In this document: positions 9,043 through 35,995 of the stretch, in pieces
Layout of the letters: every line of letters begins with the position of its first letter
Position numbering within the stretch: position 1 is the first letter of the stretch
NCBI GenBank assembly: GCA_049840675.1
Contig: JASGKB010000001.1
Coordinates: forward strand, 40,151 to 104,150
DNA: 64,000 nucleotides
From: Pirellulales bacterium
GTDB taxonomy: Bacteria > Planctomycetota > Planctomycetia > Pirellulales > PNKZ01
Direction: 5' to 3'
Program-made: the position numbers and the translations under genes
The notes under the pieces: generated by a model
The model's input: the letters and a program-made list of their open reading frames with translations, nothing else
Databases searched by the model: none
Told to the model about the DNA's origin: nothing

Positions 9043-9233
9043 AGAGTTCGGGCGATTTTGCAGCGGGAAAACGTCGGATTGTAACGACTTACAACACAGT
9101 TCGCTTAAGAGACACGGCGGGCTCGAATCAGGCTCGAACCCTTGCCCGGCACAATCCGTATGATACATTTGATTGTAGTCGTTTTGACTATTATCGCCGT
9201 TGGATTTAGTGTCGTTTTTTGGACTATCTCGCC

Positions 9234-11159
9234 ATGTCCGCCACAAAAACTAGCGACTCGTCTCTGTCGCTGTCGCAAGATTTACTTAGATTCGCCCTCG
9301 AACATGCCGATTCGACGGCAGTTTTTCTCGATACGGCCTTGGGAAAGCTCACCTCGACGGTCGGTGCCGACTACGCGGCCGTCGTTCGCAATCTCGACGG
9401 CCGATGGTCGGTCGTCGGGGCGTTCGGCACCACAGCCTCCTCGACTAGCTCGGCCTTGCCGACCACGCACCTTGCCGACGTGCTCGACCGCGAAACGGCC
9501 GGCGTCTCCGGCCATTGGCTGGCGTTGCCGATCGACCGCCGCAGCGCGCCCGGCGAGCTCCTAGCGCTGCACGCTCCCGACACGGCCGCCCTGAAGCGAA
9601 TGCAGGAGGCCGTCGAACAATCGCGAGGCGTGTTCGCCCAAGGCTATGCCACGGTGCGGGCCGGCGAAAAGCAACGCCGCAGCAACGAACGGCTCGCTGC
9701 GCTGCTGGAGATTAGCGGTCGCTGGAACCAGACGCAGGAGATGGAGCCGCTCTTGGTGCAGATGGCGGAAGCCGCGACGAAGATGCTCGGCGCCGATCGT
9801 GCGAGCATTTTCTTGTGGGACAAGCCGAACCGGCAGTTAGTCGCCCGGCCGGCGCTAGGCGTGGAAGGGAACGAGCTCCGCATGCCCGACGATACGGGAG
9901 TCGTCGGCAAGACGCTGCGCTCGCGCATGCCGCAACGTGTCGACGCTCGCTACGGTCAGGAAGAGATCGCCCGTGAGATCGACCAGAAACTTGGCTATCG
10001 CACGCGGACGCTGCTGTGCGTGCCGCTCGCGTCGCGCAAGGGGGAAATGCTCGGCGTTTTCGAAGTGCTGAACAAGCGCGAGGGAGACTTTAACGACGAC
10101 GACGAGCAAGCCCTTGTCGAGCTGGCGGCCCACGCCGCTACCGCGCTGGAAAACACGCAAGAACGCGAACGACTGCTGCAATCGCGCCGGCAATTGACGG
10201 AAGAAGCGGCGGCGGGCGTGCGGCTCATCGGCGACTCGCCGGCGATTGAAGCCTTGCGCTCGACGACACGCCGCGTGGCCGACACGGAGCTGGCCGTTTT
10301 GATTCTCGGCGAGAACGGCACAGGGAAAGAAGTGGTCGCTCGCACGATTCACTACTTGAGCAGCCGGCGCGATCAGCCGTTTATCGCGGTGAACTGCGCA
10401 GCGCTCACCGAGACGTTGCTCGAAAGCGAACTCTTCGGACATGAGAAAGGGGCCTTCACCGACGCTCACGAAGCGCGGCCCGGCAAGTTTGAACTCGCCA
10501 ACGGCGGGACGCTGTTCCTCGACGAAATCGGCGACTTGAGCCTCGGCGGGCAGGCAAAACTCCTGCGCGTGCTGGAGGAGAAGGTCGTCGTCCGTGTCGG
10601 CGGATCGAAGACCATTCATACGGACGCGCGCGTCATTGCGGCGACGAACCAAGATCTAGGGGCGATGGTTCGCGAGAAGCGTTTTAGGCAAGACTTGTTC
10701 TTCCGTCTGAACGTCGTCTCGATCCATCTCCCGCCGCTCCGGGATCGGGCCGGCGACATCATCCTGCTGGCCGAACATTTCTTAAGCGACTTCGCCCGAC
10801 GGGCCCGTCGCAAAGTGCCGCAACTTTCGGCGGCGGCCAAAAAGCGGCTCGAAATGCATTCGTGGCCCGGCAACATTCGCGAACTCCGCAACGCGATGGA
10901 ACGGCTGGCCTATTTGTGCCCGGGCGAACGGATCGAACCGGAAGACCTGACGTTTATCCTCGCCGCCGGAAGCGAAGCGCCGGCGGCCGTGCCCGACAAC
11001 TTACCGCTGGCCGAAGCGACCGACGAATTTCAGAAGGCGTACATCACCCGTGCCATCGCCCGCAGCGGCGGCAACATGAGCGAAGCGGCCGAACGCCTGG
11101 GGCTGCATCGTTCGAATTTGTATCGCAAGATGCGACAACTCGGGATGCCGACGAGCTAG
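9234..11159 (+). CDS. Sigma-54-dependent transcriptional activator (GAF + AAA+ + Fis HTH)
   Basis: GAF domain, [37 protein letters not shown] and a C-terminal HTH ([19 protein letters not shown]). Confidence 0.95.
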
Positions 11160-29295: not shown

Positions 29296-29544
29296 GACTT
29301 CCTTGGGCTGATGGAGCGGGTCGCGGATCGATGTCGTGACGCGGCACCGCTAGATAGATGACAAAGCGTGACGCGGCGCATCGCACTAGCCGGCCGTGCC
29401 GGCATGGTCGGGGTTGGACGAGTTCGCCGGTTCTGCTACAAACCGCGGCCCGCGTAGGTCGGGCGTTGCCGGCTGGGAAGCCTCGGCAGCGCTGCGGTCG
29501 CCTTGCGCGAGGCTCCAAGTTTTGCGGCCGGGAAGTCGTCACGG

Positions 29545-31515
29545 ATGAACAACTTCGGAAGATCGCTCAAACTGGCGCTGCGCTATAAGTGGACGTTCGT
29601 CGGCTCCGTGCTGGCGGCGCTCGCCGTGGCCGTGCTGTGGGGCGGCAACATCGGCGCCGTCTACCCGCTCGTCGAGATTTCGCTCAAAGGGGAAACCCTC
29701 CGCGATTGGTCGCAGAAGCGGGTCGACACTTACCGCAAGCAAATCGAAGCCGACGACGCCGAACTGGTACGCCTCGGCGGACCGGAAGCCGGCAACGCAG
29801 CCCGCCATTTGGCGGCGCAGCGCGAGTCGCACGTCGCCCTGCTCCACATGTTCACCTGGCTCGACGAATCCGTCATCGCGCCTCATTTGAACTTCTCGCC
29901 GTTCGCCACGCTCGTGCTGGTAATCGGCGTCTTGCTGGTCGGCACGCTCGTGAAGAGCGTGTTCCTCGTCATCAATCAGATTTTGGTGACGCGGCTGGCG
30001 AGCTTGGCCGTGATGGATCTGCGCAAGGAGTTCTTTCGCAAGTCGCTCCGTTGCGACTTGGGCCGCTTCACGGCCGACGGCACCGGCGAGCTGATGAGCC
30101 GGTTTACGTACGACATGGAAAACCTGCTTTCGGCCCACAGCGAATTCTTCGGCAAGCTCGTCCGCGAGCCTCTGAAGATGCTGGCCTGCTTGGCCGGCGC
30201 GGCGTTCGTGAGTTGGCGGCTGTTGCTCTTCTCGCTGATTCTCGCGCCGCCGGCGGCGTTTCTGGTCCGCAAACTTGCCAAGGCGCTGAAGCGCGCGAAT
30301 CGCAAGCTGATGGAAGAGATGTCGGAGATGTACGAAATCATCGACGAAACCTTCCAAGGGGTGAAGGTCGTCAAGGCGTTCACCATGGAACGGCACGAGC
30401 GCCGCCGCTTCCACTACAGCAACAAAGAGTTCTACAAGAAATCCATGCGCATCGGCCGCTACGATGCGCTGACGCGCCCGCTCACGGAAGTGCTCGGCAT
30501 CGGCACGATCTGCGTCGCCCTCTTGGCCGGCACTTACTTGGTGCTCAATCAAGCGACGCACATCGGCTTCATCAAACTCTCCGACGAACCGATCTCGCTG
30601 AGCATGATGTTCGTGTTCTACGGCATGCTGGCCGGCACGAGCGACCCGGCCCGCAAGCTTTCGGAAGTGTTTAGCCGACTGCAGCGCAGCGCCGCGGCGG
30701 CCGACCGTATTTATCAACTGCTCGACCGCGAACCGACGGTCGTGAACCCGCCGAAGCCGGTGAACTTGCCGCGGCACTCGCGCGACCTCGTGCTGGACAA
30801 CGTCAGCTTTTCGTACACGCCCGACCGGCCGGTGCTGGAGAACGTTTCGCTCACGATTCGCGCCGGCGAAACCGTGGCGATCGTCGGCCCCAACGGCTGC
30901 GGCAAAAGTACGCTCGCCAACCTGCTGCCGCGCTTCTTCGATCCGACCGGCGGCCGCGTGCTGCTGGACGGCGTGGATATTCGCGACGTGCGCATGCAGG
31001 ACTTGCGCACGCAGATCGGCATCGTCGCTCAAGAGACGCTGCTCTTCGACGATACGGTGCTCAATAACATTCGTTACGGCTCGCCGCGCCACGCGCGAGC
31101 AAGTGATCGCCGCCGCCGAACAAGCGCACGCCCATCGCTTCATCGAAGAGAAGCTTTCGGCCGGTTACGAAACCGTGGTCGGTCAGCGCGGGAGCAAGCT
31201 TTCCGGAGGTCAGCGGCAACGCATCGCTCTGGCCCGCGCGATTCTGCGCGATCCGGCCTTGCTCATCCTCGACGAAGCGACGAGCCAAGTGGATTTGGAA
31301 AGCGAACAAGTCATCCACCGCGTGCTCGAGCGCTCGTGCGCGACCGTACGGCGGTGATCATCACGCACCGCCTCAGCACCTTGGCGCTGGCGGATCGGAT
31401 CGTGGTGATGAACGCAGGTCAGATCTTAGACGTCGGCACGCACGCCGAACTTCTCGGCCGTTGCGATTTCTATCGTCGACTGCACGAGTTGCAATTTCAC
31501 GACGCCGCGGCCTAG
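29545..31515 (+). CDS. ABC exporter with fused permease and ATPase (MsbA-like); two compensating frameshifts at about 31090-31335
   Basis: TM domain and Walker A GPNGCGKS; LSGGQRQR and ILDEATS lie in the shifted frame (ORF 31103..31357); IITHRLST. Confidence 0.92.
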
Positions 31516-31565
31516 GAGCACCGCGCGGGTCAGAGCTAGGTTCGGTTCGAGCGAGGGTCGTCTCC

Positions 31566-31993
31566 ATGATCGATTTCACTCCGACAGTGCGCCGGCGGTT
31601 GCCGCAGGCGCTGCTGCTTGGCATCGCCTGCGGTCTTACGATCGGCTTCGTCGGCTGTGCCAACTTCTCTAAGCACCGGCCTGCCGCGCTCGCGGCGGCG
31701 CACGATCGGCAGGCGCAACGCACGGCCGGCGTCGACACGCGCGACGCGATGCTCACGATCGTTCGCGAGCTCGTACCGCCGGGGACGTCGTTGGCCCAAG
31801 CCGAAGCGATTCTTGAAGCCGAAGGGTTCGACTGCGCTTCGCGGCCGACGACGCCGGCACGGTCGACTTTCTTCGCGGTACCCGAGTTGATTCGACCGGC
31901 CCGCTGGTTTCGCGCCGCTGGACCGTACGGTTGCCGTACCGCGACGGGATGGTGGTCGACTGCCACGTGGAAACCGGGCTCATCGGACCGTAG
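31566..31993 (+). CDS. Hypothetical lipoprotein; probable frameshift
   Basis: Signal peptide with lipobox-like FVGC; likely C-terminus ...VVDCHVETGLIGP* ending at 31993. Confidence 0.5.
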
Positions 31994-32028
31994 CGCAAAA
32001 AGGCCCGCCGGCAAGTCTTTGACCCCTT

Positions 32029-32043
32029 TGGCACATGGCTTGC
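32029..32043 (+). promoter_or_regulatory. Sigma-54 (-24/-12) promoter
   Basis: TGGCACATGGCTTGC fits TGGCAC-N5-TTGC with exact GG-N10-GC spacing and is intergenic. Confidence 0.8.
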
Positions 32044-32052
32044 CTATAGAGA

Positions 32053-32298
32053 GGTGTCACCGCTCCCGGAACAGAGAGCGGTGGCCCTCGGAGCCTTCGG
32101 GTTTCGGGAGCTTGCTCAGAGGCACTTCGGCCCTGGGAAGTCTTCCTTCGGGAAGCTCTCGAGCCGCTGTTTCCGGCAAAAACAAGCCTTTACGATCGTG
32201 GGCTCCGCAGTCCCTGTCGCAAGGTTTGGCCGGATGAGCAAGGCAGCGGGGCGGGTCGGGAGCTTGAATGAGGCACAAGCTTTCGACCCTCCCGTTGC
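32053..32298 (+). ncRNA. Putative structured RNA of unrecognised family; 3' end uncertain
   Basis: Starts at the predicted sigma-54 +1; consecutive hairpins, two with C(UUCG)G loops; G-U-containing stems; no credible ORF. Confidence 0.5.
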
Positions 32299-32729
32299 AA
32301 ATTGCAACGTTGCAGAATGATACACCTGTAGCAAAACGCTGCAGTTCACGGTCGGATCAGCCTGGGGAACAGGGGCTGCCGATCGTGTGAATTCTGCCGC
32401 GTTGGGTCTCGACGGGCGTGAGCGAAAGTCGTTGAAATCAAACGATTTTATTGACTCCAGCCCGGCGATTCCTACCATGAATGTTTGGCGCTCAGGTGGT
32501 TCCTTCGAGGGGAGTAGAACTCTCGACGGGACTTGAGGAAGTGCGAACGGGTAAACGCGCAAAGTGAATGCGCACGATGCTCGTCGCCCTCTCGTCTGAG
32601 TTCTCTTGTTCGATCTGAGTTCTCACGTCTGGGGTTCTCTCGTCTGCGTCGGCATTCATTACGTTCGCGTCGGGCTGAAAGTTTGTAGGCACGCAAGTTT
32701 GTCAGCACGCCAAGTCTGAAGCATGTGCA

Positions 32730-34502
32730 TTGGAAAGTTCGGTCGAGCATGACCAAGTCGTTCAACTGTTCTGTTGCACGCTCGTCGGTACGGATACTTG
32801 CACCATCGCGCTGGTACACCCCGGCGCTTCGTCTACCGCCGCGGAACTCGCGGCCGGTGCCGCGACGGCTGCTACGCGCAAACTTCCGCGCAGCGCCACG
32901 GGCAATGTCAGCGAAGGCGACATCATCAAGTACATCAACGAACAAATTCGCAAAGGCTGGGCCGATACGGGCGTCGGCCCGTCGCCGCAAGCGACCGATG
33001 CCGAATGGTGCCGTCGCGTTTATCTCGACATCATCGGCCGGCTGCCGACCGTCGAAGAATTGAACGCCTACCTCTCGTCGGGCAGTCCGGAAAAGCGGCT
33101 CCGCATGGTCTCGCTGCTCACCGGCGAAACGCTGCCGGGCAAAACCCAAGGACACAAGCCCTGGCCGACAAGTATCTGGAAGAGTACGCCCGTCACTGGG
33201 CTTCGAAGTTTTCGATTCTGTTCGTCGGCCGTCCGCCGGCTCAACGTCAGAACCGTGAGCTCGTGAACCGTGACGGCATGCAGGCCTTCCTCCGCGGTTC
33301 GTTCCTGCGGAACAAGCCGTGGGACAAGATCGTCGAAGAGATCGTCGCGCCACGGGCACGACGTCGCCGGGCTCGCCGGAATTCAACGGCGCCACGAACT
33401 TCCTCGTGAACAAGCTCGCTGAAAACGCCACGGAAGCCACGGCCAAAGACCGCCAAGTACTTCCTCGGCATCCAAGTGCAATGCACGCAGTGCCACAACC
33501 ATCCGTTTAACGATTGGAAGCAGGACCAATTCTGGGGCCTGAACGCCTTCTTCCGCCAAACCAAGAGCGTGCAAAATCGCAACGGCCAGAACGTCGAATA
33601 CGTGACGCTCGGCAACGAAGATTTTGCCGGCGAAGGGAACAGCCCGAAGGAAGCGGAAATCTACTTCGAACTGCGTAACGGCGAACTTCGCGTCGCCTAC
33701 CCGACGTTCGTGGACGGCACGAAGATCAACTCCAGCGGCTACGTGAACGAAGTCGATCGCCGCGGCGAGCTGGTCGAAGCTCATCGTCAAGCACGAAAAC
33801 TTCGGCAAGGCGTTCGTCAATCGGATGTGGGGCCACTTCCTCGGCTACGGCTTCACCAAGCCGGTCGACGACATGGGTCCGCACAATCCGATTTCGCACC
33901 CGGAACTTCTCGATCGCCTCGGCTCGGAATTCGCGGCCCGCGGTCACAACGTTCGCGAAGTCATCAAGTGGATCACGCTGAGCGAAGCTTATTCGCTTTC
34001 GAGCCGCACGACGCCGCGCAACAAGAAGGACGATCCTTCGCTCGGCGAGAAGCCGATGTTCTCGCACTTCTACATCCGCCAAATGCAAGCGGAAGAGTTG
34101 TACGAAAGCCTCTTGGCCGCCACGCGGGCCGACAAGGAAGGCACCCCGGAAGAACGCACGGCGAAGAAGGCCATGTGGCTCTCGCAATTCACCGTGACCT
34201 TCGGCAACGACGAAGGGGACGAAGCCACGACGTTCGACGGCACCATTCCGCAAGTGCTGATGCTCATGAACGGCGATCTCACGAAGACCGCCCTGACGAG
34301 CACCTTTATGAGCCAACTCTCGGCGAGCCCCGCCTCGCTGAAGGATAAGGTTGATTACTTGTACATGGCGACGTTGGCCCGCAAGCCGACGAGCCGCGAA
34401 GCAGGCTTGGCCCTGAACGCCAAGGGAGCCGGCCCGCAAGAAGTGCTGCAAGACGTGTTCTGGGCGCTGCTGAACTCCAACGAGTTCATCTTCAACCACT
34501 AA
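32730..34502 (+). CDS. DUF1549/DUF1553 (PSCyt2/PSD1) planctomycete protein; several frameshifts, start uncertain
   Basis: Motifs ATDAEWCRRVYLDIIGRLPT, FLGIQVQCTQCHNHPF..WKQ, VNRMWGHFLG, SHPELLD.L and WALLNSNEFIFNH. Confidence 0.88.
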
Positions 34503-34685
34503 CGCGTCGCGAAGAAGTATCGTCGCGTCGGGCCTTGGGAAACCCTCGGCGCGACGAAGCCCGACGAGCGATCAGGTAAGCGGATCGCATCGTCGGGAGG
34601 TAGGAAAGGCCGAGAGGTCGGATAAGTCACCGTTTGAGATCACGTTTAGAGATCACGCAGTTATCACGCTCCGGGAGATTCGCAG

Positions 34686-35995
34686 ATGTCCATGAATCGT
34701 CGTCACTTCATGTCGCACATGGCCGCTTCGGCCGCCATGACGGCGCCCGTCGCCGCGTCGTTCACCAACATCCTTCAGGCCAACGCCAAGGACATGCAGA
34801 AGCGGCAAAAAGCCTGCATTATGCTGTTCATGAACGCCGGACCTCCGACGATCGACATCTGGGACCTCAAGCCGGGCCAACCGACCGGCGGTCCGTTCCA
34901 AGAAATCGACACGTCGGCCCCCGGCGTGAAGATCAGCGAACACATGCCGTTGATGGCCAAGCAAATGCATCACACGGCCATCGTGCGCTCGATGAGCACC
35001 CGCGAAGCCGATCACAATCGCGGCCGTTACTACATGCACACCGGCTACGTGCCGAACCCGAGCATCGAGCACCCGAGCTACGGCGCCGTCATCGCCAAGG
35101 AACTCGGCAACCCGAACCTCGAAATTCCGCCGTTCGTCGCGATCGGCGGCTCGAGCTACGGCCCGGGCTTCTTGGGCATGAGCTACGCCCCGTTCGCCGT
35201 CGACTCCAACGGCGACGTTCGTAACCTGAACATGAACATGGAAGCCCCGCGTTTGGCTCAGCGGCTCGGCCTGCTGTCCGAAATCGAAGGCGGTTTCGCC
35301 ATGTCGTCGCGCGGCGAAGCCCCGATCGAACACAAGAAGGTGATCGATCGCACGGTGACGCTGATGACCAGCGACCAAATGAAGGCGTTCAAGATCGACG
35401 ATGAACCGGCCAACGTGAAAGAACGTTACGGCATCGCCGCTCCGGCGCAGGAATGGCCGCCGGCGGTCAAGGCGGCATGCGTCGCAACACGACCTTCGGC
35501 CGTAGCTGCTTGGTCGCTCGCCGTTTGGTCGAGCGCGGCGTGCCGTTCGTCGAAGTGGACATGGGCGGCTGGGATCTCCACCAAACGACCCACGACACGC
35601 TGAAGAACAGCCTCCTGCCGGTGCTCGATCAGGGCATGAGCGCCCTCATCGAAGACCTGGCCCAACGCGGCATGTTGGAAGACACCGCCGTGGTCTGGAT
35701 GGGCGACTTCGGCCGTACGCCGCGCATCAACGCTCGCGCCGGTCGCGATCACTGGGCTCGTTGCTGGTCGACCGTGGTCGCCGGCGGCGGTCTCAAGGGC
35801 GGTCAAGCCGTGGGCGCGACGAATGAAGACGGCACCGCGGTGGCCGACGGCGTCGATCCGATCAAGTCGGAAGACTTGATGGCTTCGGTGCTCAAGGGCC
35901 TCGGCGTCTCGCTCGAAACCACCTACACGAGCAAGAACAACCGTCCGATGAAGATTGCCAACAGCGGCAAGGTCATCAAGGAACTGTTCGCCTAG
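34686..35995 (+). CDS. DUF1501 family protein with Tat signal; frameshift near 35450
   Basis: Motifs NRRHFM, GPPTIDIWDLKP, ARRLVERGV.FV, GWDLH and GDFGRTP.IN...GRDHW. Confidence 0.9.

Follow-up and report, generated by a model that had tools for sequence, protein, structure and literature searches.

Introduction

Sequestration of a regulator by a decoy is a known principle of RNA-based control. CrcZ of Pseudomonas is a sigma-54/CbrB-dependent RNA, and Crc is involved in the binding of its repeats. CsrB, RsmY and RsmZ are protein sponges with many short repeats in hairpin loops, where A(N)GGA cores are presented to CsrA. In enterobacteria, the sigma-54-dependent decoy GlmY mimics GlmZ and titrates the RapZ protein. 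The eukaryotic microRNA (miRNA) sponges, or competing endogenous RNAs, carry multi-site arrays, and some of their sites are centrally mismatched. We know of no bacterial sRNA sponge with arrays of sites. In this study, we analyzed a locus in a 64,000-nucleotide (nt) stretch of DNA from a Pirellulales bacterium (the whole stretch is called the window). An initial annotation had placed at 32029-32298 of the plus strand a sigma-54 promoter driving a structured RNA that did not look like tRNA, tmRNA, RNase P, SRP or a familiar riboswitch. Judged by conservation and covariation among related genomes, this stretch is a real non-coding RNA gene, conserved in one planctomycete order. The RNA, here called the sigma-54 RNA, contains units complementary to a small RNA (sRNA) encoded elsewhere in the same genome. 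The best reading is that it is a sigma-54-controlled multi-site decoy that titrates this conserved sRNA, and we give this reading a probability of about 0.55.

CrfA sponges the SisA-D sRNAs in Caulobacter crescentus, and QrrX sponges the Qrr sRNAs in Vibrio (PMC12559287). In the part of that paper available to us, bacterial sponges are described as pairing with the interaction site of the sRNA, and arrays of sites are not mentioned. Like CrfA and QrrX as described there, the sigma-54 RNA would be a dedicated, signal-induced non-coding RNA that pairs with an sRNA seed, with masking of the messenger RNA (mRNA) targets. It differs from them in belonging to another phylum, in having no sequence or Rfam relation to them, in its sigma-54 promoter and in its site arrays, where up to several, often bipartite, sites are combined; in addition, its function is inferred here. 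Both CrcZ and the sigma-54 RNA are about 400 nt in length, have several repeats of one motif, depend on sigma-54 (a prediction in our case) and would act by sequestration. The repeats of CrcZ are A-rich and bind Hfq, whereas the G/A-rich repeats of the sigma-54 RNA match another RNA, and no Rfam match links the two. Short repeats in exposed loops, together with CsrA genes in the own genome, are reminiscent of CsrB, RsmY and RsmZ, but the GGA core is not conserved here, the promoter type differs and there is no Rfam match. GlmY and GlmZ also form an sRNA pair with a sigma-54-dependent decoy, but those two RNAs do not base-pair with each other and have no repeat array. The miRNA sponges are an analogy only, as the context here is bacterial and contains no Argonaute.

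In the literature searched, nothing was found on the sigma-54 RNA or its partner sRNA. No regulatory RNA was found described for planctomycetes in that literature; a motif named 'Rhodopirellula-1', which may overlap with either RNA, is listed in a table of Weinberg 2010 (PMC2864571). The two RNA families and the multi-site array under sigma-54 control are new. Two order-wide RNA gene families are defined in this study with their predicted promoters, ends and specific interaction, and the covariance-model seeds can be used to annotate both genes in several hundred genomes. If the decoy reading is true, sigma-54 signalling would be tied to post-transcriptional control through a many-site RNA-RNA sponge. 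As a two-RNA switch of the kind proposed below, the system would be a bacterial analogue of the multi-site miRNA sponges of eukaryotes, and no regulatory RNA circuit would have been defined in the phylum before it.

Conservation of the sigma-54 RNA

The RNA is present in a single copy in its own genome according to BLAST. Homologues with 72-79% identity were found by BLAST in four of the five other genomes of the genus, and in none of 35 more distant relatives. In the genus alignment, conservation extends from the promoter to about 32520, and the sequences are then unalignable up to a downstream start codon near 32749. The elements noted initially within 32029-32298 are present, but this extent is too short for the conserved element. 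The conserved unit probably spans about 32055-32449, which corresponds to an RNA of about 400 nt with ends predicted from sequence.

Covariance models were constructed for the 3' domain (R1, 32240-32339) and for the 5' domain (R2, 32054-32125). R1 finds the element in 10 of the 18 genomes of the family, and the 3'-domain model was rebuilt from these ten genomes as R3. Among 151 evenly sampled genomes of the order, 67 were matched by R3, with one match each except for G078 with two. No match was obtained in 150 genomes of the phylum outside this order, which doubles as a specificity control. The 34 best R3 loci were used for the counts of structure, promoter and neighbouring genes given below.

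No Rfam 15 family matches anywhere in the window at the gathering thresholds. In permissive mode, the only match is hya on the minus strand with 15.8 bits (gathering threshold, 56.8 bits; E = 9.4), which is noise. The proposal of a structured RNA outside the known families was thus upheld by the Rfam check. A 6S identity was rejected, as the RNA is not a 6S-like rod and RF00013 has no match at E <= 1 in the own genome (88.7% complete). An 88-codon open reading frame (ORF) at 32054-32320 was ruled out as a conserved gene by indels in the genus alignment that are not multiples of three.

Structure of the sigma-54 RNA

The plus strand of 32050-32300 folds with -134.3 kcal/mol, as compared with -104.5 +/- 4.7 kcal/mol for dinucleotide shuffles (z = -6.34, none of 200 as good). 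The corresponding z value for the minus strand is -3.64. RNAalifold gives 91 pairs for the genus alignment of 32050-32345, and 22 of them show compensatory changes. Many G-U pairs of the stems are compatible with the plus strand only. Both the G-U pairs and the stronger fold agree with the initial choice of the plus strand, and the stem, its loop, the loop partner, the two UUCG hairpins and the long hairpin were all found where they had been placed.

The P1 hairpin consists of stems at 32056-32065 and 32076-32085 and an apical loop at 32066-32075, and three of its stem pairs are compensatory in the genus alignment. R2 finds P1 in two further genomes (E = 3e-5 and 3e-4), one from another genus and one from a divergent member of the same genus. 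The P1 loop reads CCGGAACAG at 32066-32074, and the loop motif GGAACAGAG is invariant in the genus. The P2 hairpin at 32087-32108 has a UUCG loop in the window, with three compensatory pairs in five sequences. A second C(UUCG)G hairpin was read at 32142-32155. Both C(UUCG)G-capped hairpins are present in the window as annotated, but the UUCG loops vary in the genus, the P2 loop being UUCACG in two members. The variable middle domain at 32126-32239 forms genus-level hairpins, with partial support from RNAalifold helices.

The long hairpin lies at 32243-32298 with its core at 32253-32289, and UGAGGCAC occupies 32269-32276 in its loop. Of the 15 core pairs, 13 are compensatory with both sides changed in an alignment of 34 sequences, and 93.6% of the cells pair. 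The covariation score is 0.485, as compared with 0.224 for shuffles (0 of 500 reach the observed score) and at most 0.135 with the partners slid. In an alignment of ten sequences, 17 of 20 pairs are compensatory. Covariation is seen in the first stem as well as in the long hairpin.

The A/U-rich 3' tail at 32295-32339 contains UUGCAAA..., GAUACA-NN-UGUAGC and GCAAAACGC, and shows strong sequence conservation in the 34 sequences. A helix around GAUACA was rejected as weak (76.9% paired, two of six pairs compensatory). A GAUACA-NN-UGUAUC palindrome is found in the tail and its homologues, along with elements resembling UUGCAAAAUGA, of which there are two or three. The A4 and U4 runs of the tail exchange between copies across families, which hints at alternative pairings.

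The palindromic tail elements (TTGCAA and GATACA-NN-TGTATC) and the weak helix support in the tail would fit another explanation, namely that no functional RNA is made and that the conservation reflects DNA-level elements of the neighbouring genes such as promoters, operators and activator sites. We regard this explanation as very improbable. The many compensatory changes, the G-U pairs that work on the plus strand only and the stronger fold of the plus strand argue against it, and so does the strand specificity of the complementarity described below (81 sites versus 1 on the antisense strand).

A long-range pseudoknot between the P1 loop and CTGTTTCCGG at 32167-32176 had also been proposed. 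The complementarity exists; across five sequences of the genus, 82% of the cells agree with this pairing, but one member has lost it and none of the changes is compensatory. The pseudoknot is therefore not supported, as it is confined to the genus and shows no covariation. The alternative RNAalifold helix for the 32167-32176 segment is also weak. The sequence CUGUUUCCGG of the middle domain, at these positions, resembles the sRNA seed described below with one extra U.

Repeat units and the partner sRNA

The 5' domain of the RNAs from outside the genus consists of copies of a purine-rich unit, GGGGCCGG-AACAGA-GAAGAGGC. The commonest k-mers in 32 RNAs are AGAGGC(A), GAAGAGG, GGGGCCGG and GGAACAG, and those of the GAAGAGGCA type are the most frequent. 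The aligned consensus of the unit is CGGGGCCGG-N5-7-GAAGAGGCA, and the full form is GGGGCCGGAACAGAGAAGAGGC. The units are often located in loops of the minimum-free-energy folds. In many units, the two end segments, GGGGCCGG and GAAGAGGC, can pair (8 + 8 nt), and the centre between them is mismatched.

In the window, the P1 apical loop holds CCGGAACAGAGA at 32066-32077 on the plus strand, a 12-nt perfect complement of the seed of the partner sRNA. Of 10 exact genome matches of at least 12 nt, all lie in coding sequence except CCGGAACAGAGA and the one in the sRNA gene itself. A degenerate GAAGAGGCA half-unit, CAGAGGCAC, is located at 32117-32125 of the plus strand, and its GAGGC is invariant in the genus. 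The 6-nt unit remnants AGAGGC and GAGGCA are found on the same strand at 32118-32123 and 32271-32276. By comparison with the homologues, the P1 loop of the window is a decayed copy of the order-wide unit.

One exact 22-nt copy of the unit is present elsewhere in the own genome, on contig C24, and its opposite strand reads GCCUCUUCUCUGUUCCGGCCCC. This C/U-rich seed is located directly 5' of a canonical terminator, which consists of a covarying GC hairpin and U7. The partner sRNA gene defined in this way is unannotated, lies on the minus strand (G000:C24:198695->198563, 133 nt) and has a sigma-70-type promoter besides the terminator. The C24 locus is 82-95% identical in 17 of the 18 family genomes, and it has no Rfam match. 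When the 21-mer CCTCTTCTCTGTTCCGGCCCC was searched with up to two mismatches, 127 of the 151 order genomes were matched, mostly with no mismatch. The reversed control gave three matches in all, and none of the 150 genomes from elsewhere in the phylum contains the 21-mer.

In all of 39 sRNA loci, a hairpin and a T-run of at least six follow the 21-mer directly, and a promoter of the TGGACA-N16-17-TGGTAnnAT type is present 74-140 nt upstream (at two loci, the regular expression in the script chose a closer, spurious site). This placement of promoter and terminator in 39 of 39 loci indicates that the C/U-rich strand is the sRNA transcript, with a length of about 125-165 nt from the positions of the two signals. 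The partner therefore has its own promoter and its own terminator, and is encoded in the same genome as the sigma-54 RNA. The composition of the seed suggests that the sRNA may normally pair with purine-rich ribosome-binding regions.

Additional unit-like sequences were observed. The genome G124 has eleven 21-mer matches on several contigs, and ten of them are near-identical variants ending in GCTGC or similar, which suggests a dispersed repeat. In the own genome, the non-coding segment G000:C22:74100-74170 contains two unit-like sequences, GGCCGGCACAGAGAACGAG and GCGGAACAGAGA, without an Rfam match, and might serve the sRNA as a further target or decoy. At two loci, L089 (G044) and L099 (G066), a stop codon is followed by a single near-perfect unit and then by an intrinsic terminator; such units may be sRNA sites borne by 3' untranslated regions.

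Complementarity between the two RNAs

A typical genome contains two 21-mer loci, one of which is the sRNA gene. The second, antisense locus has 1-2 mismatches and, in at least 26 genomes, lies 130-290 nt upstream of the R3 match on the RNA strand, according to a comparison of the coordinates of the R3 and 21-mer matches. In the 5' domains of 32 RNAs, 81 exact complementary sites of at least 8 nt to the 26-nt seed region were detected. The controls gave 3.85 sites for mononucleotide shuffles, 1 for the antisense strand and 18 for the reversed sequence; the near symmetry of the unit makes the last of these a poor control. Every one of the 32 RNAs contains a site, 26 of them contain two or more, and the longest sites extend over 16-19 nt. 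The mean probability of being unpaired is 0.54 at the sites versus 0.34 elsewhere. Across the family, therefore, the seed complementarity is extended and exceeds chance, as is expected of a sponge.

The two genes also occur together. Of the 67 R3-positive genomes, 64 hold the 21-mer, and G002, one of the remaining three, has a diverged copy. In family f15, neither the sigma-54 RNA nor the sRNA 21-mer was found in any of nine genomes. These genomes are related and not independent, and no P value is attached to the co-occurrence or to the site counts.

Genome searches in the own genome gave motif counts at or below the control. A relaxed search for the two-part unit resulted in 74 matches versus 89 for the reversed control, and seed-complement matches of at least 11, 12 and 13 nt numbered 72, 10 and 2 versus 109, 21 and 9. 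Thus, mRNA targets cannot be found by these searches.

The multiple repeats in loops would equally suit an RNA-binding protein. The units might be sites for a CsrA paralogue, Hfq or another protein, the match to the sRNA being secondary. The own genome has eight CsrA-domain genes and one weak Hfq-like gene, and CrcZ is a precedent for a sigma-54-controlled protein sponge. The core of the unit is GAAGAGGCA/GGAACAG and not the A(N)GGA core of CsrA sites, and GGA is replaced in some units (AGAACAG, CGAACAA). The 21-mer search singles out the sRNA gene and the sigma-54 RNA, and a protein motif predicts no contiguous complementarity of up to 19-21 nt. From these results, binding of a protein as the main role of the units is quite unlikely. 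The conserved repeat is GGGGCCGG-N-GAAGAGGCA / GGAACAG, in contrast to the A(N)GGA repeated in loops of RNAs of the CsrB/RsmZ type. The idea that the GGA of the P1 loop could bind CsrA was likewise abandoned, as the conserved repeat is GGAACAGAG/GAAGAGGCA rather than a GGA core, and the complementarity to the sRNA fits better.

Sigma-54 promoter

The promoter TGGCAC-N5-TTGC is read at 32029-32043 of the plus strand, with TGGCAC at 32029-32034 and TTGC at 32040-32043. The doublets GG (32030-32031) and GC (32042-32043) show the 10-nt spacing of a sigma-54 promoter and the sequence agrees with the consensus, and the transcription start is predicted near 32055, about 24 and 12 nt after the two doublets. 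The promoter is unchanged as TTGGCAC-N5-(G)CTTGC in all five sequences of the genus alignment. In 32 of the 34 loci, a script found exactly one YGGCAY-N5-TTGC box, located 197-310 nt 5' of the R3 match. One of the other two loci is cut by a contig end, and the other is without the box. As R1 and R3 exclude the promoter, the box search is independent of the coverage of the models. The near-consensus box of the initial annotation, with its predicted start, is thus present and is kept order-wide.

A further 18 loci were retrieved through the repeat unit from R3-negative genomes. In 13 of them, the units and the long hairpin are present and a strict sigma-54 box lies 37-198 nt upstream; one more has the variant TGGTAT-N5-GTGC. 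These results indicate that the family is wider than R3 counts. Degenerate DNA patterns were unsuitable for finding more members, as they either missed too many of the known ones or would match too often by chance.

The own genome contains a single rpoN (one Sigma54_DBD match, 206 bits) and 24 matches to the Sigma54_activat AAA+ domain, which correspond to about 20 activator genes. One sigma-54 activator gene is located within the window (ORF 9219-11159). Only 12 exact copies of TGGCAC-N5-TTGC are present in the 7.4-Mb genome, counted over both strands; several of these matches are in non-coding DNA and look genuine. The region upstream of the box is often the 3' end of an ABC transporter gene. 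The sigma-54 dependence of the RNA in vivo is predicted from the promoter motif. The initial description as a novel sigma-54-dependent sRNA is supported in its novelty, its sigma-54 box and its strand.

Proposed mechanism

Our computations show the conservation, structure and promoter motif of the RNA, as well as the complementarity and its specificity within the genome. From these results we infer that the two RNAs pair in vivo, and in which direction control runs. According to the decoy reading, a stand-alone gene on the plus strand, from 32055 to about 32449, would be transcribed by sigma-54 RNA polymerase with one of the roughly 20 enhancer-binding activators. The product would be a structured RNA, about 400 nt long and composed of a 5' domain with one to several units, the long covarying hairpin and the A/U-rich tail. 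The units would pair with the invariant C/U-rich 3' seed (GCCUCUUCUCUGUUCCGGCCCC) of the separately encoded sRNA. When an activator turns on the sigma-54 RNA, the RNA would titrate the sRNA as a sponge or decoy, and the mRNAs repressed by the sRNA would be relieved.

A more specific form of this proposal is a two-RNA switch, in which a constitutively promoted sRNA is titrated by an activator-dependent sigma-54 RNA with an array of target mimics. In this switch, the 21-nt seed, invariant across the order, would be anti-Shine-Dalgarno-like, and full mimics would be present together with centrally mismatched ('bulged') ones. We put this more specific form forward tentatively, at somewhat below even chances.

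Several points weigh against the decoy reading. In the genus of the window, the array has decayed to one 12-nt site and two 6-nt remnants. The RNAduplex energy between the seed and the window RNA is -32.0 kcal/mol (32065-32087), which is no better than that of dinucleotide shuffles (-28.8 +/- 3.1 kcal/mol, 46 of 300 as good); the window RNA is GC-rich. As the window duplex does not exceed the shuffles and the array is decayed, the argument for pairing comes from the family rather than from the window by itself. With an invariant seed, no covariation between seed and sites can arise. The alignments used for the pair counts were fitted to the model, and the counts lean toward structure. The exact sigma-54 consensus is not enriched genome-wide (12 occurrences versus 6-14 at control spacings), and a k-mer search found no shared activator site upstream in the 32 loci. 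Terminator-like T-runs are present after the core in no more than 18 of 33 loci. The DUF1549 operon comes after the RNA, in the same orientation, in 25 of the 34 loci, and read-through or a role in cis is possible. Transcription of the RNA and the positions of its ends are deduced from the DNA.

The 3' end and neighbouring genes

A terminator-like hairpin, AAAGUCGUU-GAAAUCA-AACGAUUUU, is located at 32425-32449 of the plus strand. It is conserved and covarying in the family and is the likely 3' end of the RNA, although the consensus terminator scan made no call on it. A sigma-70-type promoter, TTGACT-N16-TACCAT, follows at 32451-32478 of the plus strand. It is the sole match of the promoter scan (0.1 expected), is conserved in the family and is assigned to the downstream DUF1549/DUF1553-DUF1501 operon, with the start codon near 32749. 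The order of the elements 3' of the RNA core in the family is an A-run, a hairpin, a T-run and then the sigma-70-type promoter. A T-run followed by TTGAC is found in 14 of the 34 loci. In other families, terminators with a hairpin and T7-9 are present 47-94 nt past the core, at +47 in G039, G078 and G025. In one genus, the sigma-70-type promoter lies about 45 nt from the DUF1549 start codon.

The gene order is clear in G005, a well-assembled member of the genus: sulfatase, ABC transporter, small lipoprotein, RNA, DUF1549/DUF1553 (635 aa), DUF1501 (441 aa) and alpha-amylase. The PSCyt2/PSD1/DUF1501 genes point to a planctomycete. The downstream gene is another one in three genomes of two families, a PLD-like gene in G039 and a 3-keto-disaccharide hydrolase in G069 and G135. 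In G099, G086 and G049, no DUF1549 gene was found downstream of the RNA. The RNA is intact in all of these six genomes.

These arrangements bear on the possibility that the RNA is itself the regulated party, a sigma-54-driven 5' leader whose stability, termination or read-through is controlled by binding of the sRNA. The seed complementarity fits such a leader equally well. The frequent position of the operon on the same strand, an ABC transporter upstream in 15 of the 34 loci and the 15 of 33 loci in which canonical terminators are unseen are also in its favour. The six genomes with an intact RNA before another gene or no DUF1549 gene argue against a leader, as do the sigma-70-type promoter between RNA and operon in 14 of 34 loci and the strong terminators 47 nt past the core in the three genomes named above. 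The constant, direct linkage to the DUF1549-DUF1501 operon that a leader in cis requires is not observed, as the operon follows in 25 of the 34 loci. We consider the leader unlikely, though less so than a protein-binding role of the units. The variable downstream gene, the intervening promoter and the terminator-like sites indicate a separate gene and not an operon leader. The structured leader of the DUF1549/DUF1553-DUF1501 operon, which had been the second proposal of the initial annotation, is thus weakened; the operon does follow in most loci, but other genes are also found in its place.

A conserved block at 32479-32520 (GAAYGWTTGGCG ... GGTTCNTTNGAGGGGA) is located directly after the sigma-70-type promoter. 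In one genus, the GGGAGGGG part of this block serves the DUF1549 gene as its ribosome-binding site. In the genus of the window, about 230 nt are inserted between this block and the start codon.

The genes flanking the RNA in the window (29503-35995) are broken across several reading frames. The ABC transporter retains only positions 1-80 of 137 of ABC_tran, the lipoprotein shifts frame near 31900, DUF1549/1553 is spread over at least three frames, and DUF1501 is in two ORFs. The G005 orthologues of these genes are intact, with 696, 137, 635 and 441 aa. This comparison points to assembly indel errors or to local gene decay as the origin of the split genes.

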